Position numbers and translations under genes: made by a program
Source of the DNA: Candidatus Uhrbacteria bacterium
GTDB taxonomy: Bacteria; Patescibacteriota; Patescibacteriia; UBA9934
Assembly (NCBI GenBank): GCA_943354605.1
Contig: CALRCK010000001.1
Coordinates: 148,936-212,935, forward strand
Direction of reading: 5' to 3'
DNA length: 64,000 nt
Notes under the pieces: generated by a model
Told to the model about the DNA's origin: nothing
What the model saw: the letters and a program-made list of their open reading frames with translations, nothing else
The model's database searches: none
In this document: in pieces, positions 8,777-48,865 of the stretch
How positions within the stretch are numbered: position 1 is the stretch's first letter
Layout of the letters: every line of letters starts with the position of its first letter

Positions 8777-11382
8777 AGCTGAACCGCGACAATCTGCCGC
8801 AGTACGATGACGCTCTTCCTGAGCGATTTTCTGATATTCAACGGAACGACGACGCAAAGAAACTCCACATTCATCAGGGTGTGGGGGAGCCTTCGCCGTA
8901 TATTGTGAAACTTTCTCGCGACGACGCAGCTTTGCGTGCACCAATGAGCGTTGCGGAGGAAATTGAGGCACTTGCAAAGAGCTTGATTATCGATGGAGAT
9001 GATGAGCAGATTTCATTGGAATCGAACCAGGAACATGAGGATCTCGGCATCGATTTTGCGGACATTTCGGGACAACTTCGAGAGTTCGACACGGTCATGC
9101 CACGATCCGAAGCTCCACGAGTAAAACAGACCGCTGCAAAATCTGTTGCGCCGAGCATTTCTTTGGACGATGCGCTTGCGGCATTCATCGAGTCTCCAGT
9201 ATCACTTGAGGCTTTGGTGCCAATAACACCAGTTGTCGAGGAGGCGCCGCTCGAATCCATCGCGCAAGAGCAATTCACCCCTGATGCGCCATCGTCGCCG
9301 TGGGTTGTGACATCGCCGATGGTGGTTCGCGAGGCGCGCCAAGCGTATCATGCACCGTCGTCCACCATGCGGAAGGTGTTGCGTTTTGAATGGGGCTTCT
9401 TGCAACATGCGCCGGTTCGGGCGCTTGCGGCCTTCGTGATGCTGTCGTTTGTGGTGGTGTTGCCGCTGCACGCAATGCAGACGCTTTCCGGCACCGCACA
9501 TCAGGTGGGAGCCGTAAAAGATATCGGTATTGCGGCATTGGATGACGTTTCACGCGCAACATCGGCATTGAGCGCCCGCGACTTTGGCGCGGCGCAAACT
9601 GATTTCTCGGCCGCAGCAGAGAAGTTCGCGAATGCGCAGGACTCGTTGAACGATTTACATGCCGGCGTTGTGGCAATGGTGAACGTTATCCCGCAGACGG
9701 ACCGAACATACGAATCGGTGCGTGGTTTGGTGACGGCTGGTCAGGAGTTGTCACAAACGGCTTCCATTATGACGCAGGCGGGAAGCGGAATTACGTCGCA
9801 GTCTTCAACGGACGTTGTCACAAAACTCAATCTTCTTGGAGCGTATATCGAGAACGCCCTTCCGCATGCATTGGCTGCACAGGCGGCGCTCGCAAAAGTG
9901 GATTCGGCGGTTGTTCCGGCGCAATACACGGAAAAAATCGCAAAGCTTCAGTCGGAAACTCCAGCAATTGCCGCATCAATGCAGGAGTTCTTGAAGTTTG
10001 TGCATACCTTAACGTTCCTGCTTGGTGGCGAGAGCACAATGCGATACCTCGCGCTTTTCCAAAACAACACCGAGCTTCGGCCAACGGGCGGATTCGTGGG
10101 GAGCTTTGCGGAAGTAGACATGGACAACGGTGCTATTGCAAACATGCGACTTCCTGGCGGTGGAACATACGACGTCCAAGGCCAGCTCGACGCGTTTGTG
10201 GCGGCGCCGCAGCCGCTGTCGTTGATTAATCCTCGATGGGAGTTCCAGGACGGAAATTGGTTCCCGGATTTCCCAACGTCTGCAAAAAAGATGCAGTGGT
10301 TTTACGAGCATGCGGGTGGACCAACCACGGACGGTGTCGTGTCGGTGAACGCGACATTCATTGAAAAGCTCCTCGATATTGTTGGGCCGATTGAGATGCC
10401 AGAGTACGGGCTCACGATTGATTCTGAGAATTTCCTCTTTGCAACAGAGAAGGCAGTTGAGGTTGATGCAGATAAAACAAAGAACACCCCAAAGGCGATT
10501 CTTGGCGACATGGCACCGAAACTCATCGAAAGGATGAAGACTGCCGATGCAAAGGAACTGGTGAAGATTGTGATGTTGATCGAGCAAGGGCTGATTGAGC
10601 GAGATATTCAGGTGTATTTCCGAGATAACGACGCGCAGAAGGCAATGCAGGACTTGGGTTTTACCGGAAATGTTGAACAGACAGCGGGTGACTACCTGAT
10701 GGTTGTTGATACGAATGTTGGCGGCGGCAAAACCGACGCGGTGATCGATCAGGCGGTGAATGTTGACGTGAATATTTCCGAATCCGGAACTATTGTGGAC
10801 GACCTTACGCTGACAAAAACGCATCATGGCATGGCGAACGCGTTGTTCAGTGGAAAGAATAACGTTGATTATGTGCGGTTTTACGTGCCGGAGGGAAGCG
10901 TGTTGCTTTCTGCGGATGGATTTGAGCCGCCAGCGAAGAGCCTTTTTGAGCCGTCGGATGTGCCGTTGAACATGGACGACGACCTTTCGATTGTGATGAG
11001 CGGCCAAACGCGCGATGCAATTTCTGGCATGGATATTTGGAATGAGTTTGGAAAGACGGTGTTTGGCGGTTGGGTACAGACGGCGCCGGGCGAAACACAA
11101 GTTATTCATGTGTCGTACCGTATTCCGCAAGTGCTCTTCTCCGCCGATTCGGACACATCGTTCTTTGCTCGCGTGCGTCGGCAGCTCGGATTCGACAATC
11201 ATGACGGGTATTCAATGCTTGCTCAGAAGCAGTCTGGCGTCGTGTCTCGAACAACAACGGTGCATCTAAATTATCCATCGACGTTCAAGACGTATTGGAC
11301 GAATGTTGCTGCGGAAGACACGGATACGGCAACGTTCGATAACCTACGCGATGCATTCTCTGGTTGGATTTTGCATCGGTAA
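8773..11382 (+). CDS. DUF4012-domain membrane protein
   Basis: Central 'YLALFQNNTELRPTGGFVGSFAEVDMDNG' segment typical of DUF4012. N-terminal TM helix. Lies between glycosyltransferase genes. Confidence 0.65.
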   Translation: MKLNRDNLPQYDDALPERFSDIQRNDDAKKLHIHQGVGEPSPYIVKLSRDDAALRAPMSVAEEIEALAKSLIIDGDDEQISLESNQEHEDLGIDFADISGQLREFDTVMPRSEAPRVKQTAAKSVAPSISLDDALAAFIESPVSLEALVPITPVVEEAPLESIAQEQFTPDAPSSPWVVTSPMVVREARQAYHAPSSTMRKVLRFEWGFLQHAPVRALAAFVMLSFVVVLPLHAMQTLSGTAHQVGAVKDIGIAALDDVSRATSALSARDFGAAQTDFSAAAEKFANAQDSLNDLHAGVVAMVNVIPQTDRTYESVRGLVTAGQELSQTASIMTQAGSGITSQSSTDVVTKLNLLGAYIENALPHALAAQAALAKVDSAVVPAQYTEKIAKLQSETPAIAASMQEFLKFVHTLTFLLGGESTMRYLALFQNNTELRPTGGFVGSFAEVDMDNGAIANMRLPGGGTYDVQGQLDAFVAAPQPLSLINPRWEFQDGNWFPDFPTSAKKMQWFYEHAGGPTTDGVVSVNATFIEKLLDIVGPIEMPEYGLTIDSENFLFATEKAVEVDADKTKNTPKAILGDMAPKLIERMKTADAKELVKIVMLIEQGLIERDIQVYFRDNDAQKAMQDLGFTGNVEQTAGDYLMVVDTNVGGGKTDAVIDQAVNVDVNISESGTIVDDLTLTKTHHGMANALFSGKNNVDYVRFYVPEGSVLLSADGFEPPAKSLFEPSDVPLNMDDDLSIVMSGQTRDAISGMDIWNEFGKTVFGGWVQTAPGETQVIHVSYRIPQVLFSADSDTSFFARVRRQLGFDNHDGYSMLAQKQSGVVSRTTTVHLNYPSTFKTYWTNVAAEDTDTATFDNLRDAFSGWILHR

Positions 11383-29770: not shown

Positions 29771-29847
29771 TGGGCTCATAGCTCAGTTGGTTAGAGCGCC
29801 GAGCTTATACCTCGGTGGTCCCTGGTTCGAGTCCAGGTGAGCCTACC
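29771..29847 (+). tRNA. tRNA-Ile (anticodon TAT/UAU), CCA encoded
   Basis: Manual fold: gggctca|ta|gctc|agttggtta|gagc|g|ccgag|cuUAUac|ctcgg|tggtc|cctgg-ttcgagt-ccagg|tgagcct|a|cca. Confidence 0.75.
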
Positions 29848-30020
29848 AGAATTCTATGTACTTCATTCCACCTCTTCTTCTTTTTCTCGGCGTGGTGTTT
29901 AGCATCATGGGCCGACAGCACCATAACCACGAATTTGTCGGGTTGGGGTATATTTTCTTTCTTGCAGCATTTGCTGCGGGGACCGTGTTGTTTCTTGCGC
30001 TCTCTGCGCTGTAGTAATTT

Positions 30021-37319: not shown

Positions 37320-37520
37320 ATGGTTTCTCTCGCGGTAAAGATTCGAAAAGGGCAAGGATCACAAACCGTCTCACTTGAGATGAGTTCACGTTCGTTTGAA
37401 CGCTTTGCGGCAGCTTTCGGGCTTTTTCGCAAAGAGTTTCTTCAGAGCTTAGCTCGCTCTCAGCGAGATATCCGCGAAGGACGTGTGAGAACGATTACAT
37501 CCTTCAAAGAACTGGAGTAG
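37320..37520 (+). CDS. putative antitoxin of a RelE/ParE toxin-antitoxin pair
   Basis: 66-aa ORF ending 4 nt upstream of the toxin gene. Small and charged. Confidence 0.45.
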   Translation: MVSLAVKIRKGQGSQTVSLEMSSRSFERFAAAFGLFRKEFLQSLARSQRDIREGRVRTITSFKELE

Positions 37521-37524
37521 ATGT

Positions 37525-37797
37525 ATGTGGACGATTCGCGTATCGGAAGAATTTGTAAAACAGTATAAAGCATTGCCAATTCTTATTCGTAAGCGCATTC
37601 AAAGGCAAGAAGACTTGTTTCAAGAAAATCCATTTCATCCATCGCTTCATACCGAAAAACTTGAGCCGAAGAAAGACCAAGTGTGGAGTATTCGTGTTGA
37701 TCGTCGATACCGTATTCTTTTCCAGTTTCAGGATTCCAATACGGTAATATTCGTTGCAGTTGGTCCGCATGATTGGATTTATACGTCTGCGATGTAA
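37525..37797 (+). CDS. RelE/ParE-family type II toxin
   Basis: 'MWTIRVSEEFVKQYKALP...LHTEKLEP...VWSIRVDRRYRILFQF.DSN.VIFVAVGPH' is a typical RelE/ParE fold signature. Confidence 0.6.
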   Translation: MWTIRVSEEFVKQYKALPILIRKRIQRQEDLFQENPFHPSLHTEKLEPKKDQVWSIRVDRRYRILFQFQDSNTVIFVAVGPHDWIYTSAM

Positions 37798-43823: not shown

Positions 43824-45446
43824 CTATTTGCGCGGATGGTGAAATGGTAGACACGCCAGCTTGAGGGGCTGGTGGCCGCAAGGTCGTGGAGGTTCGAGTC
43901 CTCTTCCGCGCACCAATACAGAACTCAACGGCTTTTTCAAAGCCAGAAGGTGGGACGCGCGAAGCGCGTCCCACTGATTTCCCCCCATTTTTCCAAACGA
44001 ATTTGGAGCACCGCCTTCGGCGGTGCGCACTGTTTTTTCGCCAAGAAGCAGGTTCGAGCCAAAGATTTCTTTGGCAACGACCTTTTTCGCAAAAGGGTTG
44101 CTATCCCGTGCGATTCTACTTAGATTTTGAGCGTCTTTTATCCACTCCTTCATCGGTTCGAGCCAATCATTTTGCTTTTGTAGAAGTGAAGATATTTTCT
44201 CTTCCAGCGACTTCTTTGTAAATAACAACTTTGATTTTTCAGCACGATATATTTCTTGTTCAATAACTTGGTCTAAATAGCCGTCAAGAAGTCGCTGGAG
44301 CTTCGCTTCAATATTTTTGATTTCTTTTTTCACTTCTTCTACAAAAGCAGAATTAGACTGGGCAGATTTTTTGTGGTCTTGCAGAGCAAGACGATTTAGT
44401 TCTTCCGCCCAGTCTGGTGGCAAAGAAACTGATTTGATAAGTGATGATAGCTGTTTGTCTAATTCCTCTTGGCGAATACAAGGTTCGGGACATTTTATAT
44501 TTTTGTTTTTCTTTGAACAATGGTAGTAAGTGTAATTATGCACATTTCCATTTTTCTGTTTCTTAACCTTGTATTCGCCAGTTATCATCATTCCGCATGA
44601 GGCGCAAGAAATTAGTCCACAAAAAGGTTGAGGTTCATTTTTAGATTTTCTGTCAGGTACACCGCGAAGTTTCAAAATTTCTTGCGCCTTATCAAACAGT
44701 TTCTTTGACACAATTGGCTCGTACTTTCCCTCATGGCGTTCACCGCCATATTTGAACAAACCGATGTAAAAAGGATTGGAAAGAATAAAAGACGCTCTAG
44801 TTTTGGAGATTATCTTTCCGCCTCTCGAAACGATTCCATTTTTCGCCAAAAAGTTTGAGATGTCTTCTAATCTACTTTCACCTTTCGCGTATTTCTCAAA
44901 AGCCAAGCGAATGACGCGAGATTTTTTCTTGTCCACTACGACAGATTTTGTGCGAGAGTCGTTGATATACCCCACTGGCGCTTGGCTTGGATAATCGCCA
45001 TTACGAACTTTTTGGCGAAGCCCTCGTTTCGTGTTTTCGGAAAGAGAATCTACATAGTATTTGCTTTGCCCAAAGGCGATGTTGAGCATAAATTTTCCTT
45101 GTGAAGTGTTTTCACACCAAAAAGTTGGAAATTTCAATATCGCCAAATGCCCGCAATCCAAAAGATAAATTATTCGTCCACCGTCCACAGAATTGCGCGC
45201 CAAGCGATCCGGATGCCAAGCAAGGATAGCATTTGCATCGCCGTTTTCAATACGCGAAATCATTTTATTAAACACTGGACGACCAGGAATTTTAGCCGAT
45301 TGTTTTTCAATCAATTCTTCGGCGATATGCAAACCCTCTTGCTTGGCATACGCGCGCAATTCGGTGAGTTGGGCGTCAATAGATAAAACCTGCTTGTCCT
45401 CAACATCGGTGGACTTGCGGGCATACAAAAAGAATTTTTGTTCCAT
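43824..45446 (-). CDS. large serine recombinase (resolvase/invertase N-domain + recombinase domain + zinc ribbon)
   Basis: 'FFLYARKSTDVEDKQVLSIDAQ' catalytic Ser region, 'LAWHPDRLARN', and 'CGLISCASCGMMI...YYHCSKK' Cys cluster. I chose the start at 'MEQKFF' (45446). The frame stays open through IR1-L and antisense across tRNA-Leu, so the natural C-terminus is uncertain. Confidence 0.75.
   Translation of the reverse strand: MEQKFFLYARKSTDVEDKQVLSIDAQLTELRAYAKQEGLHIAEELIEKQSAKIPGRPVFNKMISRIENGDANAILAWHPDRLARNSVDGGRIIYLLDCGHLAILKFPTFWCENTSQGKFMLNIAFGQSKYYVDSLSENTKRGLRQKVRNGDYPSQAPVGYINDSRTKSVVVDKKKSRVIRLAFEKYAKGESRLEDISNFLAKNGIVSRGGKIISKTRASFILSNPFYIGLFKYGGERHEGKYEPIVSKKLFDKAQEILKLRGVPDRKSKNEPQPFCGLISCASCGMMITGEYKVKKQKNGNVHNYTYYHCSKKNKNIKCPEPCIRQEELDKQLSSLIKSVSLPPDWAEELNRLALQDHKKSAQSNSAFVEEVKKEIKNIEAKLQRLLDGYLDQVIEQEIYRAEKSKLLFTKKSLEEKISSLLQKQNDWLEPMKEWIKDAQNLSRIARDSNPFAKKVVAKEIFGSNLLLGEKTVRTAEGGAPNSFGKMGGNQWDALRASHLLALKKPLSSVLVRGRGLEPPRPCGHQPLKLACLPFHHPRK
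43830..43915 (+). tRNA. tRNA-Leu (anticodon GAG), type II, CCA encoded. Its 3' end is the junction of an inserted element.
   Basis: gcgcgga|tg|gtg|aaatggtaga|cac|g|ccagc|uuGAGgg|gctgg|long variable arm|gaggttcgagtcctc|ttccgcgc|a|cca. Confidence 0.8.
43909..44057 (+). repeat. IR1-L: ~150-bp inverted repeat (left copy) containing three GC hairpins, including gcaccgcc-UUCG-ggcggtgc
   Basis: Nearly identical, in reverse complement, to 45514-45661. Confidence 0.8.
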
Positions 45447-45513
45447 AGAGGGATTATAGCAAAAATTCTTTTTGTTGGGCAAATCCTTTTTTGAATTTGT
45501 ATCGCACGGGATT

Positions 45514-45661
45514 TCGAACCTGCTTCTTGGCGAAAAAACAGTGCGCGTCGCCGAAGGCGACGCTCCGAATTCGTTTGGAAAAATGGGGGGAAATCAGTGG
45601 GACGCGCTTCGCGCGTCCCACCTTCTGGCTTTGAAAAAGCCGTTGAGTTCTGTATTGGTGC
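45514..45661 (-). repeat. IR1-R: inverted copy of IR1
   Basis: Reverse complement of 43909-44057, with one point difference plus two compensatory base-pair swaps in the UUCG hairpin. Confidence 0.8.
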
Positions 45662-45970
45662 CTTTACTATACCAAGTTAGAACCTATTTTCAAAATAAAA
45701 TATCATAGTGTTTCCCGCGCGCTAAAGCGCCACCACGCGAAGCGTGGTGCTTCTGCTGAAGCAGAAGTGCGGGAAAACGCTCTGCACTCCGCCACAATGT
45801 TTTGGGGGCAAAGGAGGCGGAGTGCAGAAATGCGGAACGCGAGCGAAATTTTGCGAAATGCTGGGGGTTTGGGGGAAAGTATTTCGCAAAATTCGCTTCG
45901 CGTGCTTCCTGATTTTTTGGCGACAGAATTGCGGGGTAAAATTGTTCAAATTCGGATTTTTTGATATAAT
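45656..45970 (+). repeat. IR2-L: ~313-bp perfect inverted repeat (left copy) ending in an inward-facing promoter
   Basis: Exact reverse-complement match to 48518-48830. Contains hairpins ccacgcg/cgcgtgg, cttctgc/gcagaag and ctgcactccgcc/ggcggagtgcag. Confidence 0.85.
45942..45970 (+). promoter_or_regulatory. sigma70-like promoter TTGTTC-N17-TATAAT driving the HD-hydrolase gene (inside IR2-L)
   Basis: Perfect -10 and a 17-nt spacer, with the ATG 13 nt downstream. Confidence 0.55.
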
Positions 45971-45982
45971 GTTTTTGATATT

Positions 45983-46576
45983 ATGAAGTTTACTATCAAA
46001 GTTATTAATGCGATTAGCCAAGCAGCGATTTGGCATAAAGACCAAGTTCGCAAGGACTTTGAAGAAACGCCTTATATTGCGCATCCATTTTCTGTAATGC
46101 TGACCCTTTTGGAATTTACAAATGATGAAGATGTTTTAATCGCTTCATTATTCCATGATGTTTTAGAAGATGTAAATCTAAAACTTGCTGAAATTATAGA
46201 AAAAGAATATGGCTCCAAGGTTATAAAAATTGTAAAAGCATTGAGCGAAGACAAAGATCCTGAAAAACAAACTGATGCCAAAGCCACATGGCGCTCGAGA
46301 AAATTAGGATATTTAGAACATCTTAAACTTGCTCCGAAGGAGGTCCTTTTGATAAGCTGTGCGGACAAGCTAGACAATTACCATACGCTTGCCAACACCA
46401 TCGAAAATTACGGCTTCAATATAGCATTAAAAAATTTTAATGCTCCGCTCAAAGATCAATTATGGTTTGCTGATGAAATAATAGAAATTTTCAAGAACCG
46501 TCTACATGGTCATCCACTGGTCAATCGTCTTTCGCAAATAATCAATCACATCAAAATCCTATCAAATACTCATTAA
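45983..46576 (+). CDS. small alarmone hydrolase (SpoT/RelA-like HD-domain (p)ppGpp hydrolase, SAH)
   Basis: 'PYIAHPFSV...LFHDVLEDV...VKALSEDKD...RKLGYLEHL...CADKLDNYHTL' parallels the RelA/SpoT HD hydrolase motifs (HPL.V, HDVVED, VTK, RKM, KLADRLHN). AT-rich codon usage. Confidence 0.65.
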   Translation: MKFTIKVINAISQAAIWHKDQVRKDFEETPYIAHPFSVMLTLLEFTNDEDVLIASLFHDVLEDVNLKLAEIIEKEYGSKVIKIVKALSEDKDPEKQTDAKATWRSRKLGYLEHLKLAPKEVLLISCADKLDNYHTLANTIENYGFNIALKNFNAPLKDQLWFADEIIEIFKNRLHGHPLVNRLSQIINHIKILSNTH

Positions 46577-46887
46577 TTAATTTCAGAATCTAATTTTTCT
46601 TTAGCCTTTGCAAAATCCACCATTGTTTTTTCCTCAGGCAAACTGCCATAATATAACCTTGTATATTCATCAATTATTTCTTGGCCTTCGCTTCCGTTTA
46701 GATCTTTCCCTTGTATGTCTTGGCGCCAATAAAGCTCAACAAATTTTTGATAATCAAACGGTTCCTTATTGTAAGGATTTTCATTAATTAACTTATCCAA
46801 GCTCGCTTTTTTTTCTTCTCTAATTTTCTTATAAATCATATTCTGGTCTTCTGGGGATATAAAGTTTGTTTTTTCATTCATAGACAT
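46573..46887 (-). CDS. hypothetical protein (last gene of the zeta-like operon)
   Basis: 104-aa Lys/Glu-rich ORF in AT-rich cargo. Confidence 0.35.
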   Translation of the reverse strand: MSMNEKTNFISPEDQNMIYKKIREEKKASLDKLINENPYNKEPFDYQKFVELYWRQDIQGKDLNGSEGQEIIDEYTRLYYGSLPEEKTMVDFAKAKEKLDSEIN

Positions 46888-46916
46888 AATTAGTATTCTT
46901 AAATTTAATTATAATA

Positions 46917-48332
46917 TTATTGCGCTTTACTATCAAGAGCCACGCCGATAGTTTTACCTAAATATTGTCGTAAAGTTTCTGCTGTTTTTTCTGCAAATTG
47001 TTGTGATTTTTCATCGAAATATGTCGCTGTAAAATTTTGTATGTATTCTTCTGTGATTACAGTATTGTTGATCCTTTCTATCTCTTCTTCCGGTTCTTCA
47101 ATTGATTGGCCGGCTAAATTCTCTCTACCCTCAATAATTCTAACTTTTCCAGCTTCTTCATCCCACACGGCGACTTCAACGGATTGTCTTAATTCCTTGT
47201 CATAAGCCATTAAAACATATCCATTGACTAACTGCGGATTATCATCTAAAGATTTATGTTGGACCTCACGATTTCCTCTAATCCCTCGAAATCCCTGCGC
47301 CACACCATCAAAGGCTATGTTTGGATCGGCGCCTCCCTTTTCACGTTCCAAAACTCTTACAGCGGAAAGCTCGAGCGGAACATCAATATCCATAATTGCA
47401 ATCTTACGGCCAGTTTCCTTAGCACTTTCAATCATTTCTTCTATGTCCGCATGCTCATTCATTAATTTATCGAAAACTACCGATGTATCTGCGCTAGATA
47501 CTTCTTTTTTAACAGCTCTTCCCAACATGGTACTTTCAGCATGAACTTGAGTAGACGATAAATTGCCTTTTTCTTTGAGCGGTCCCTTGAAAACATCTGG
47601 CGCCAATGAGCCGCTTGGTTGTCCTTTTTCATCTAAAATGCCTTTAAACATCTCATGCCCCCTGCGAAGAGCGGTTGTTTTACCTGCCCCGGGAGATCCG
47701 CGTAAAGCAAAAATTGTTGGGGGAGGAATTCTAGGGTTTTCTCTTTCGAGCCTCCTAGATAAATCCAAGGCCTGTTGAGTGTTTTCTCTTTTCAATCGTT
47801 CGTGTAATGACCGTCTACCATCCCAATTTTCAGGATTATCGTAGATTGTGCTTCTTTCTTTCTTAGACAATCCTGTCGTATCAACAAGGCAAAAAACCTT
47901 AGATGTATCTATATTTGGGTCTCTTGATAATAATTCAATGTTTTTATCATAACCTTCTTCACTTCTATGGCCTTCTTGGCTTGATGTAGGTTCTCCCGCG
48001 TCCGTTATTTCTCTAATTTTCCCCACTTCTTCGCCTGCAAGTTGCGTAGCTTCTGTTTGTATTTCATTCAGTTTTCCATCAAGCCCTTGTTCCTGCCGAA
48101 CGGCTGATAACATATCGGGAGATACACTCATGCTTTGAGATGATAACTCAATTCTCTGTTGCGCTTCCGGCAAAACATTGGCTGTTTGTTCAGCAATATT
48201 TTTTTCGGCGGAAACAGCGAATTGTTCTACCTGTTTGTTGCTGACCTCCGCCTCAACGGCTTCTTCCGGTGACCTGATTTCTGTTTCTGCTGTTTCTATT
48301 TTAGCTTGGGGTGAAAAACGTTCTGTTTTCAT
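46917..48332 (-). CDS. zeta-toxin-family P-loop kinase with long acidic N-terminal extension
   Basis: 'PTIFALRGSPGAGKTTAL' Walker A, followed by 'LAPDVFKGPL' (zeta/PezT-like Asp region) and 'IAIMDIDVPLELS'. The N-terminal ~190 aa are acidic and low-complexity. Confidence 0.55.
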   Translation of the reverse strand: MKTERFSPQAKIETAETEIRSPEEAVEAEVSNKQVEQFAVSAEKNIAEQTANVLPEAQQRIELSSQSMSVSPDMLSAVRQEQGLDGKLNEIQTEATQLAGEEVGKIREITDAGEPTSSQEGHRSEEGYDKNIELLSRDPNIDTSKVFCLVDTTGLSKKERSTIYDNPENWDGRRSLHERLKRENTQQALDLSRRLERENPRIPPPTIFALRGSPGAGKTTALRRGHEMFKGILDEKGQPSGSLAPDVFKGPLKEKGNLSSTQVHAESTMLGRAVKKEVSSADTSVVFDKLMNEHADIEEMIESAKETGRKIAIMDIDVPLELSAVRVLEREKGGADPNIAFDGVAQGFRGIRGNREVQHKSLDDNPQLVNGYVLMAYDKELRQSVEVAVWDEEAGKVRIIEGRENLAGQSIEEPEEEIERINNTVITEEYIQNFTATYFDEKSQQFAEKTAETLRQYLGKTIGVALDSKAQ

Positions 48333-48499
48333 AGTTGCTTTAATGATTTTCTAAGCTCGTCCAATTTTTTCTCTTTGAGCGTGTCTAAAAAATCGGCGAC
48401 GATATCATCGCGCTTTTTCTTAAGCACGGAAAATTTGGCTGCAAATTCCGTCACTATTTTCTCAATTTCTTTTTTCTTTTGTAAATTTTTATTGGTCAT
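48329..48499 (-). CDS. 56-aa helical ORF translationally coupled (ATGA overlap) to the zeta-like kinase; candidate epsilon-like antitoxin
   Basis: Not in the supplied ORF track (<60 aa). Translated by hand it reads 'MTNKNLQKKKEIEKIVTEFAAKFSVLKKKRDDIVADFLDTLKEKKLDELRKSLKQL*'. Its stop overlaps the kinase ATG. Confidence 0.35.
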   Translation of the reverse strand: MTNKNLQKKKEIEKIVTEFAAKFSVLKKKRDDIVADFLDTLKEKKLDELRKSLKQL

Positions 48500-48517
48500 A
48501 TTCTATATATTGAGTCT

Positions 48518-48830
48518 ATTATATCAAAAAATCCGAATTTGAACAATTTTACCCCGCAATTCTGTCGCCAAAAAATCAGGAAGCACGCGAAGCGAATTTT
48601 GCGAAATACTTTCCCCCAAACCCCCAGCATTTCGCAAAATTTCGCTCGCGTTCCGCATTTCTGCACTCCGCCTCCTTTGCCCCCAAAACATTGTGGCGGA
48701 GTGCAGAGCGTTTTCCCGCACTTCTGCTTCAGCAGAAGCACCACGCTTCGCGTGGTGGCGCTTTAGCGCGCGGGAAACACTATGATATTTTATTTTGAAA
48801 ATAGGTTCTAACTTGGTATAGTAAAGGCAC
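48518..48830 (-). repeat. IR2-R: inverted copy of IR2 carrying the mirror promoter (ATTATA...GAACAA on the plus strand at 48518-48546) reading leftwards
   Basis: Exact reverse complement of 45656-45970. Confidence 0.85.
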
Positions 48831-48835
48831 CATCG

Positions 48836-48865
48836 AAAACGAAGCCTGACCGGGCTTCGTTTTTG
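48836..48865. terminator. bidirectional hairpin terminator just outside IR2-R
   Basis: 'aaaacgaagcc-tgaccg-ggcttcgtttt' flanked by A-run and T-run. Confidence 0.5.

Follow-up and report, generated by a model that had tools for sequence, protein, structure and literature searches.

A small tRNA-targeting serine recombinase element of Patescibacteria, probably with a retained inverted attachment site

What kind of element occupies the 3' end of a tRNA-Leu(GAG) gene in a member of the Patescibacteria, and are the long inverted repeats inside it switches, relics or parts of an integration system? The locus lies in a stretch of 64,000 nt of Candidatus Uhrbacteria bacterium (assembly GCA_943354605.1, contig CALRCK010000001.1, positions 148,936-212,935 of the forward strand), hereafter the window. 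Directly downstream of the tRNA gene, there is a 4.9-kb insertion consisting of two modules, one encoding a large serine recombinase (LSR) and the other an AT-rich cargo, each bracketed by its own inverted repeat (IR1 and IR2, respectively). The original prediction, made from the DNA alone, described two adjacent invertible cassettes of the Hin/Gin style, delivered by site-specific integration into the tRNA 3' end. Comparison with relatives suggests that positions 43910-48832 are probably an integrated copy of a small LSR-driven element that is found across the Patescibacteria and that retains an inverted attP. A single integrative element of this kind, placed within the serine-integrase integrative elements, is a better description of the locus than two Hin-like switches.

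Layout and attachment sites of the element

We denote as X the sequence to the right of the tRNA and as Y the sequence to the right of the middle core, with X' and Y' for the inverted copies. L-numbers are labels of the loci examined, among which L081 and L082 are independent MEGAHIT contigs of the same population. The features that define the element, from left to right, are as follows.

43830..43915, plus strand: tRNA-Leu(GAG), the target gene (ARAGORN; Rfam tRNA, 53 bits)
43824..45446, minus strand: LSR gene, 540 amino acids (aa) from ATG (Pfam Resolvase, Recombinase, Zn_ribbon_recom)
43911..43913, plus strand: core A, the attL crossover region, CAC inside GCACCA 43910-43915 (junction comparison)
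43910..44057, plus strand: left arm of IR1, X; right arm of the attachment site, with three hairpins and, on the minus strand, the tail of the LSR open reading frame (ORF)
45514..45661, minus strand: right arm of IR1, X', the inverted copy of X (repeat finder)
45656..45661, minus strand: core B, TGGTGC, centre of the putative intact internal attachment site, inverted relative to cores A and C
45656..45970, plus strand: left arm of IR2, Y; its outer ~45 nt, which include a T-loop-like GGTTC, are the attachment site's conserved left arm
48518..48832, minus strand: right arm of IR2, Y', a perfect inverted copy of Y that ends at core C
48828..48830, plus strand: core C, the attR crossover region, CAC inside GCACCA 48827-48832 (junction comparison)
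48834..48865, plus strand: host intrinsic terminator, right arm of attB; a terminator-like site of 14 pairs and a T-run, directly after core C

The IR1 arms are 148 nt long and 96.6% identical, in agreement with the ~150 bp proposed from the sequence; four of their five mismatches amount to two compensatory base-pair changes in the hairpin GCACCGCC-TTC-GGCGGTGC at 44008-44026. The IR2 arms are 100% identical, as had been claimed, and measure 315 nt counting the shared core instead of 313 bp. The overlap between IR1 and IR2 is exactly the six bases TGGTGC. This motif and the right-hand GCACCA are where they had been placed, and the GCACCA at the tRNA junction lies one base further to the right than had been read (not 43909-43914). 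No further copies of IR1 or IR2 occur elsewhere within the 64-kb window. The G+C content of the recombinase module (0.40) and of the cargo (0.37) is lower than that of the flanks (0.51) and the whole window (0.52), which bears out the AT-rich character assigned to the cargo. The terminator at 48834-48865 appears to be the one that originally followed tRNA-Leu, as expected directly downstream of a tRNA gene.

The modules meet the host and each other at three junctions: tRNA/X at attL, X'/Y in the middle (Y'/X on the other strand) and Y'/flank at attR. In 14 elements, CAC is the sole sequence common to all three, and 253 junctions agree in that the sequence left of CAC goes with the left arm and the sequence right of CAC with the right arm. 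Because CAC alone is common to all junctions, the exchange can be placed inside it, and because CAC is non-palindromic, the polarity of the exchange is fixed. The repeat shared between insertions, anticipated as GCACCA, does recur at other insertion sites, but as CAC alone. In the window, core A covers tRNA positions 72-74: the last base of the acceptor stem, the discriminator and the first C of CCA; in several genomes, CCA is not encoded by the tRNA gene, and the element supplies the following C(A/T). The cores of attL and attR have the same orientation and share CAC in the 14 elements, as in the direct att arrangement of canonical LSR elements. Canonical integration leaves no attP and involves no long inverted repeats; here, an intact inverted Y'/X stands between the modules in 86 of 166 copies. 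Because Y'/X is the junction that excision of the whole element would form, the middle TGGTGC reads as the core of an intact inverted attP, not as a switch site sharing GCACCA with the outer junctions.

These counts come from a census in which nhmmer matches to models of X (first 70 nt) and Y' (last 49 nt) were merged with tRNA and recombinase positions. It covered 166 recombinase copies, with the following neighbours.

3' of the recombinase: tRNA 117, Y 12, contig end 15, unclassified 22
5' of the recombinase: tRNA 11, Y 86, contig end 57, unclassified 12

That 117 of the 166 copies abut a tRNA 3' end agrees with the proposed site-specific insertion, and 68 copies show the complete standard order, Y'/X-recombinase-X'/tRNA. 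The occupied tRNAs represent 25 anticodon species, unlike the one specific target gene of a canonical LSR. Twelve of the copies unclassified on the 3' side were inspected; in all of them, the partner of X is a tRNA-like 3' end or a divergent Y' arm, and in none is it an arbitrary flank. In four loci (L129:3401-3600, L141:1989-2200, L091:3891-4060 and L156:1848-2220), X is joined to a second tRNA-like 3' end that sits 60-300 nt downstream of an intact tRNA. In L129, this is a near-complete second copy of tRNA-Ile with a G+C-rich hairpin inserted before the T-arm, and in L156, the last ~24 nt of tRNA-Val are duplicated.

Only two kinds of left arm occur at the junctions, a tRNA 3' end and Y', and only two kinds of right arm, X and unconserved host sequence; where Y' meets the host, what follows directly is a host terminator or the next tRNA gene. 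Conservation within the element is highest in the outer 45 nt of Y', where 88 of 93 arms have (G)GTTC placed 19 nt ahead of CAC. In tRNA arms, the T-loop GGTTC lies 15 nt before CAC (112 of 128), as it does in tRNA-Leu(GAG), which contributes its T-arm and the 3' strand of its acceptor stem as the left arm of attB and attL. The T-loop-like GGTTC of Y' is, accordingly, four bases further from the core than that of tRNAs. We propose that the LSR recombines attP (Y'/X) with a tRNA 3' end, reading the T-arm through the GGTTC that Y' also carries. The 4-bp offset would fit the spacing logic of the attP and attB half-sites of LSRs: in structural work on a Listeria phage integrase, the zinc ribbon reportedly reads the same motif ~5 bp further out in attP than in attB. 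Mimicry of the T-arm would explain how one enzyme targets nearly any tRNA. The host-side arm would not be sequence-specific, and any tRNA ending in CAC, or an occupied tRNA/X junction, would be a usable target.

An unoccupied target is available for comparison in a tRNA cluster of relatives: tLeu(taa)...GGGCAC/AAAAC...tLys is empty, with 17 bp between the genes, in L086, L096 and L097, and filled in L070. Within the window, a tRNA-Ile gene with anticodon TAT (29772-29848) ends in TACCA, without the CAC core; the remaining four unoccupied tRNA genes end in CACCA and look like usable targets.

Recombinase, arms and extent of the family

The LSR ORF is open from a TTG at 45482 to 43824 (552 aa), with an ATG at 45446 (540 aa), and, as pointed out in the original prediction, it reads antisense through the entire tRNA before reaching a stop. 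The domains that an HMM search had been expected to find are all present: the resolvase domain (PF00239, E = 7.6e-21, residues 18-163 of the 552-aa ORF), Recombinase (PF07508, E = 3.8e-16) and the zinc ribbon (PF13408, E = 6.2e-9), the latter two both over their cut-offs. The protein has the features of the LSR superfamily, that is, a catalytic resolvase domain with the nucleophilic serine, followed by the Recombinase domain and then a zinc ribbon. In 60 homologues, the YxRxS motif (Y8, R10 and S12 in the 540-aa form) and the zinc-ribbon cysteines C281, C284, C310 and C319 are invariant. The AlphaFold model is poor overall (mean predicted local distance difference test, pLDDT, 59; predicted template modelling score 0.31) and contains two long helices, 344-392 and 397-427, with pLDDT of ~70-88, candidates for the coiled-coil motif that LSRs have after or within the zinc ribbon. 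The sequence upstream of the gene contains one feature of note.

45453..45482, minus strand: promoter-like site for the LSR, TTGCCC, 18 nt, TATAAT (consensus scan); the TATAAT ends 7 nt before the ATG

From about residue 470 on, the LSR is encoded by X and the antisense of the tRNA. The tail of relatives differs according to what adjoins the gene: ~22 of 120 homologues have a Y-encoded tail, LLYQVRTYFQNK, and most others a tRNA-antisense G(F/L/I)EP tail. The X-encoded peptide shifts with hairpin covariation (WDALRASH, WACLRHAH, WAALCAAH), and the model has pLDDT below 50 from residue 470. Because of these two properties, the open frame across X is probably not a folded domain, and a functional protein domain encoded by X was rejected as a candidate.

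The LSR is bona fide by domain content and yet appears distant from all named LSRs. It is at most 30% identical to any protein in phage and plasmid collections; in the PDB, A118 integrase (E = 1e-8) and SPbeta SprA (E = 2.6e-7) match best; and the best NCBIfam model, CcrB, scores 124 bits against a cut-off of 900, followed by CcrA (82 against 700) and CcrC (72 against 900). The IS607 model NF033518 reaches 29.5 bits against a cut-off of 110, over the catalytic domain alone. Pfam reports three domains only, and DUF4368 is not among them.

The length of the gene region varies among relatives. A 'long' subfamily (L003:7830-8000, L085:9850-10000, L086:8300-8455) has an extra hairpin of ~75 nt, GCAGAAATGG...CCATTTCTGC, which lies downstream of the promoter-like site and ahead of the start codon of the recombinase, with ~1540-1590 nt between the arms compared with 1446-1469 in the subfamily of the window; Rfam gave no match for the extra hairpin of L086. 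In L101:8150-10000 and L131:2353-4204, ~1.85 kb separates the recombinase from the upstream X arm and residues 80-519 alone were matched, which suggests an insertion into the 5' part of the recombinase gene.

Each X copy has three hairpins, the third of which is followed by a T-run and resembles a terminator facing inward. Y contains large G+C-rich hairpins followed by T-runs that likewise read inward, including one with a 26-nt arm at 45837-45903. The terminator-like hairpins of IR1 are located as follows.

44008-44026, inward: terminator-like hairpin of X, followed by a T-run
45563-45545, inward: terminator-like hairpin of X' (terminator scan)

Read as RNA, X' has a folding z of -5.1. Covariation was assessed for two X hairpins in 48 X arms with less than 88% mutual identity: 88.7% of the cells are paired, compared with 36-45% when partner columns are slid, there are 98 double-sided changes, and none of 500 shuffles reaches the observed values. 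Many of the pairs are G-U on the strand that reads inward from the core. Each arm would combine half of an attachment site with an inward-facing transcriptional insulator, and the symmetry of the inverted repeats would keep both modules insulated from tRNA and host transcription in any orientation. Because promoter-like sites, both that of the LSR and that of the cargo in the window, lie inside the modules, no regulatory effect of inversion is evident. As a general feature, an inward promoter at the inner end of IR2 was considered and rejected, the TGATATAAT motif being specific to the element in the window. Against Rfam, the arms gave sub-threshold NmsRb matches only (30-33 bits against a gathering threshold of 52; window 43947-44034 and L086:8170-8257), and this similarity to a Neisseria small RNA was judged to be mere hairpin-plus-terminator resemblance.

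Among 8000 candidates scored, 7963 were significant relatives of the LSR, nearly all of them in metagenome-assembled genomes (MAGs) of Patescibacteria; one, P0001, is identical to the product in the window. The best 120 are 65-100% identical, and every one of them with a named organism comes from Patescibacteria. Pattern scans located relatives at 266 loci in species-representative genomes and at no fewer than 573 loci in JGI metagenomes. Several genomes or contigs contain two or more copies, at times at neighbouring tRNA genes of one cluster. There are 21 closed elements with two inverted repeats and unrelated cargo, spanning 1.7-5.8 kb between the outer ends of the Y arms, with cargo of 1.4-5.3 kb. 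Their IR2 arms are 152-439 nt long and 93-100% identical (measured in 20 of the 21; none were detected for L112), and IR1 arms across the family are 115-185 nt long. The conserved module holds the LSR gene only, with 1446-1589 nt between the arms. No relatives or circular forms were found in IMG/VR, and no metagenome contig with relatives has a terminal direct repeat. The original prediction recognised no described type of insertion sequence, transposon or tRNA-integrating island here, and none was found in the family libraries or in the literature; a full-text search, which covered few papers from subscription journals, returned no description of the element family or its architecture. Thus, the element appears to be one copy of a very common and apparently undescribed family of mobile elements of Patescibacteria.

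Orientation variants and competing explanations

Cores A, B and C are oriented +, - and + across the element, such that the cores are inverted at the two ends of the recombinase module, likewise at those of the cargo module, and direct only in the outer pair. Because its two cores are inverted, a single module could, by conservative recombination, only invert and never excise. Recombination of attL with attR, which would rejoin tRNA-Leu directly to TCGAAAACGAAGCC, would be the only excision possible. The excised circle would contain two inverted copies of ~450 bp (Y' + core + X) that part the LSR segment from the cargo segment, and integration through either of the two attP copies would yield both observed orientations of the LSR module, use of the other copy leading to an isomer in which both modules are flipped. 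The attP left in the chromosome could also react with a second tRNA gene and give rise to tRNA/LSR/tRNA arrangements.

Rearranged forms of these kinds are seen among relatives. L086 is a complete flipped isomer, tRNA/X-recombinase (reading away)-X'/Y, with distinguishable arms, and the census contains 12 further, partial cases of flipped LSR modules. Between L015 and L114, Y'-X-recombinase is collinear and the cargo is 92% identical in reverse. Such flipping of modules may be due to the LSR or to homologous recombination between the 148-315-nt repeats. In four loci (L007, L023, L073 and L153), the recombinase module lies between two convergent tRNA genes, the product expected, from the order of the sites, of the internal attP and a second tRNA gene. 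Tandem arrays occur in L070, L078 and L085, that of L070 reading tLeu(taa)/X R X'/Y C Y'/X2...Y2'/tLys. This array and the empty relatives indicate that new copies can insert at an occupied tRNA/X junction, pushing older, decaying ones outward. In L032, L078 and L085, recombinase modules are flanked by Y on both sides, an arrangement for which tandem insertion offers a ready explanation. In L086:10032-10474, the sequence that follows just ~40 nt of Y corresponds to an internal part of a second recombinase gene in antisense (it forms an 85% inverted repeat with 9140-9549); a second copy may have been rearranged here, or the join is chimeric.

The switch reading, in its strict form, has a dedicated invertase flip each cassette in the Hin/Gin manner, with mobility secondary. 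Hin, Gin and Cin are small invertases with a C-terminal helix-turn-helix that act on ~26-bp sites with the help of an enhancer and Fis and produce a clear expression switch. The element shares with them a serine recombinase and inverted sites around a segment found in both orientations. The claim of invertibility stood insofar as both modules were seen in both orientations across different genomes: ~10% of LSR modules are flipped in the census, ~18% of the protein tails are Y-encoded, and the cargo runs either way in related elements. The cores are inverted, as inversion requires, and flipping alters the C-terminal tail of the LSR and the outside promoter facing the gene. The idea of two separate switches fared worse, with the middle core reading as attP. 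The enzyme is a 540-aa LSR and not a small invertase, the repeats (148 and 315 nt in the window, 148-439 nt overall) are not ~26-bp sites, and with promoter-like sites inside the modules and symmetric arms with terminators on both sides, flipping changes little. The flipped state of the LSR also follows from integration via the second attP, with no inversion needed, and the spread over 25 tRNA species with several copies per genome makes mobility primary; we hold a programmed double switch to be decidedly unlikely. A weightier alternative, although still an unlikely one in our judgement, is that the element integrates and excises as any LSR island does, that its internal site persists as a passive relic and its repeats as insulators, retained for their terminators, and that all flips and rearrangements result from RecA-dependent recombination between repeats or copies. 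It draws on the dominance of covarying hairpins and inward-facing terminator-like sites in the arms, on arms that are 93-100% identical within an element and widely different between elements, which points to gene conversion, on the X arms of L023 and L003, which belong to different subfamilies as expected of exchange between copies, and on the established behaviour of the phiC31 and Bxb1 integrases (see below). A relic should decay, however, and the repeat junction is always exactly Y'-CAC-X with conserved motifs, in 86 copies from distant lineages; the tRNA/LSR/tRNA forms, moreover, are the exact product of the internal site and a second tRNA.

We consider it very improbable that the locus consists of two independent neighbours, an insertion-sequence-like LSR transposon with 148-nt terminal inverted repeats and a separate cargo element with its own inverted repeats. 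Each module does have its own repeats, many contigs of ~1.7-2.0 kb contain the LSR module alone, and the arrays of L070 and L078 include R-less modules. However, with inverted cores, conservative recombination cannot excise or insert a single module, X'/flank or tRNA/Y junctions are absent from all 166 copies, and assembly breaks at the repeats account for the short contigs; that each module moves independently was rejected on core polarity and the missing junctions. Such a break has left its signature in many relative contigs, which stop a few hundred bases upstream of the recombinase. The breaks also bear on the chance, which we regard as negligible, that collapsed or fold-back repeats in a metagenome-assembled contig created the architecture. 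The arms of IR2 are 100% identical, and breaks fall inside IR2 in the independent MEGAHIT and Logan assemblies. Yet the IR1 arms differ at five positions and one MEGAHIT contig spans both: L081 runs from 141 nt inside IR2 through X'/Y, the recombinase, IR1 and tRNA-Leu and beyond. L082 opens with the same 141-mer inside IR2 and crosses Y'/flank into host genes, such that both junctions were recovered independently. Cargo-only contigs in two further assemblies extend ~30 nt or 141 nt into IR2 on either side before they stop. More than 100 other loci, from many studies, have the layout described here as well, often with distinguishable arms. The artefact that had been named as a possible refutation is contradicted by these independent contigs: IR1 and IR2 are real. 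Given a perfect IR2 at which other assemblies break, it was the assembler that set the orientation of the cargo in the window. The right end of a related contig, L100 (4004-4512), looks artefactual: it folds back perfectly on 2130-2638 over 509 nt, probably because the inverted repeats of the element misled the assembly. L100 was rejected as a circular or double-attP form and serves as a warning for automated surveys of this family.

Several points weigh against the integrative element with a retained attP that we favour. T-arm mimicry is an argument from a motif and its spacing, with an offset of 4 bp compared with the 5 bp reported for the Listeria integrase, and in the Y subfamily of the window, the GGTTC stretch also reads as a sigma-70 promoter, TTGAAA-16-TGnTATAGT. 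A circular form was not found among the contigs and databases searched. Comparison with unoccupied loci, suggested at the outset as a check, succeeded for the relatives mentioned above and not for the organism of the window: a pattern search for its empty site in JGI metagenomes gave 0 matches, and contigs with the flanking methyltransferase gene all stop at IR2. No recombination directionality factor is evident in the conserved module, and the cargo is not conserved; such factors have no universal signature. Canonical LSRs such as the phiC31 and Bxb1 integrases are not known to recombine attP with attL or attR, and the inversions and the insertion at occupied sites therefore need relaxed site choice or RecA. 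The tRNA/LSR/tRNA forms and those with Y on both sides may stem from recombination between two resident elements, which is favoured in L023 because its two X arms are very different. Finally, most of the data are short-read MAGs, which break at these repeats.

Relation to known systems, and the cargo

The phiC31, Bxb1, A118/LI and SPbeta SprA recombinases are of the same class and domain order (Resolvase, Recombinase, zinc ribbon and, in the low-confidence model, long helices), and phage LSR elements likewise insert conservatively at a short non-palindromic core and have one motif at different positions in the attP and attB arms. Unlike them, the family in the window targets the generic tRNA 3' end in 25 anticodon species, keeps a second, inverted attP inside the element and has arms that extend into inverted repeats of 148-439 nt; the ORF in the window reads across the core, and no directionality factor is evident. 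TnpX of Tn4451, TndX of Tn5397 and the DUF4368 clade of Durrant et al. also use many targets and reach several copies per genome. The DUF4368 domain is present in most members of that multi-targeting clade, for which neither tRNA targets nor inverted repeats are mentioned (PMC10083194). The LSR of the window lacks DUF4368, and its targets are the structured T-arm/acceptor end of tRNAs and not short AT-rich motifs. Among the recombinases of the staphylococcal cassette chromosome (SCC), CcrA/B/C, CcrB is the best-scoring named NCBIfam family, yet the equivalog cut-offs were missed; SCC elements similarly are small cargo cassettes at the 3' end of a conserved RNA-related gene and stack in tandem, unlike the element here in that it has a single recombinase gene, a tRNA target instead of rlmH, and the inverted-repeat architecture. 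Membership in the IS607 family of transposases, small proteins whose DNA-binding domain is N-terminal, failed at the level of the model match given above.

Other resemblances concern geometry and lifestyle. The yeast 2-micron plasmid (Flp/FRT) is a circle with two long inverted repeats bearing the recombinase site and two unique segments, one of which encodes the recombinase, much as in the circle proposed for the element; it differs in having a tyrosine recombinase, and the element here has a serine recombinase, no replication gene and a chromosome-integrated life. Tycheposons of Prochlorococcus are likewise small, tRNA-targeted, cargo-carrying and inversion-associated, in a streamlined host without classical mobile elements; they mostly have a lineage-specific tyrosine recombinase, direct repeats of partial tRNAs and often replication genes (10.1101/2020.12.28.424599). 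The element in the window, by contrast, has direct repeats of 3-6 nt only, no replication module and an LSR. In Thermococcales, a plasmid tyrosine integrase with a tRNA-like site is reported to join tRNA loci and invert chromosome segments (PMC5495485), a parallel to the four tRNA/LSR/tRNA loci in an archaeal, tyrosine-integrase system.

Several features of the family are, apparently, unusual, namely, generic targeting of tRNA 3' ends via apparent mimicry of the T-arm, the retained inverted site, and arms that double as insulators. If our reading is right, a serine integrase would recognise a structural class of genes, tRNA 3' ends, by mimicry of the T-arm in its own attachment site, and a live second attachment site would be kept inside the integrated element, both outside the textbook picture of serine integrases. 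Patescibacteria account for much of bacterial diversity, and their tiny genomes are regarded as poor in classical mobile elements. With thousands of copies, several per genome, and a cargo of toxins, restriction enzymes, transporters and surface proteins, the element family may be a main vehicle of accessory-gene flow and genome rearrangement in these bacteria. The family also explains the frequent breaks of assemblies of the candidate phyla radiation (CPR) next to tRNA genes and, if active, would provide a compact recombinase with defined sites for CPR genetics.

A further idea, which we rate as a long shot, is that the geometry is an adaptation to spread by natural transformation, the main known route of DNA entry into Patescibacteria, through folding of the imported single strand. 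One strand would fold such that X pairs with X' and Y with Y', the 6-nt core being common to both pairs. The internal X'-core-Y would then be a splint joining the ends, producing a double-stranded Y'-core-X site or a ligatable circle with no pre-formed circle required. Folded single-stranded CTX-phage DNA and the attC sites of integrons would be analogous cases of site creation, in this case for a serine recombinase. In a more modest form of the proposal, the retained inverted attP may turn the elements into engines of chromosomal inversion from tRNA to tRNA and of cargo capture in CPR genomes.

The cargo of the window consists of four ORFs, in which the HD protein gene is oriented divergently to the toxin operon.

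45983..46576, plus strand: HD-domain protein, 197 aa, similar to the RelA/SpoT hydrolase domain (Pfam HD_4, E = 1e-14)
46573..46887, minus strand: candidate antitoxin ORF, 104 aa (by position only, directly downstream of the toxin gene)
46917..48332, minus strand: zeta-toxin-family kinase, XopAJ/AvrRxo1 type, 471 aa (Pfam Zeta_toxin, AAA_33)
48329..48499, minus strand: 56-aa ORF, the first of the toxin operon (ORF list; also in other assemblies)

The matches support the SpoT-like and zeta-toxin-like assignments made earlier and specify the toxin further as XopAJ/AvrRxo1-like. The HD protein matches the N-terminal region of TIGR00691 (E = 1.5e-19), well under the full-length cut-off. The kinase scores 36.3 bits against Zeta_toxin (cut-off 22.3) and 204.8 bits, below the cut-off of 300, against NF041405 (XopAJ; E = 1.9e-60), in an NCBIfam alignment that spans profile positions 15-322 of 324. 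The 104-aa ORF, called as a gene in other assemblies, has no family match in Pfam, NCBIfam or PADLOC, nor does the 56-aa ORF have a significant one, and PADLOC gave no significant defence-system match for any gene. By its gene content, the cargo would be a toxin-antitoxin-like addiction or defence cassette accompanied by an HD hydrolase.

Other copies carry cargo unrelated to that of the window, including a HaeII-type restriction enzyme with a NOV_C protein, a SocA/Panacea antitoxin, an NYN nuclease, a Vut_1 transporter with a methyltransferase, the LemA, DUF2207 and RDD membrane proteins, an ArsP permease and a pilin-like protein. The 5.2-kb cargo of L014 (2454-7477) contains a fragment of a DDE transposase, an aminotransferase-like ORF, and two adjacent ORFs that jointly match one 351-aa ORF of L151; from the transposase fragment and the split ORFs, it appears that further insertions and pseudogenes build up in cargo modules. 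The Y arms contain ORFs of 75-130 aa that read toward the core, in the window at 45722-46084 (minus strand) and 48539-48766 (plus strand) and also in L089, L112, L129, L148, L104, L105 and L117. They are grouped across loci by blastp as 'families' and probably reflect the conserved G+C-rich DNA of the arms, not genes. Outside the element, the window contains a second toxin-antitoxin-like pair, a HigB/ParE-family toxin gene with a small upstream ORF at ~37486-37758 (L081:8000-8272), located between the glyoxalase and valyl-tRNA synthetase genes.

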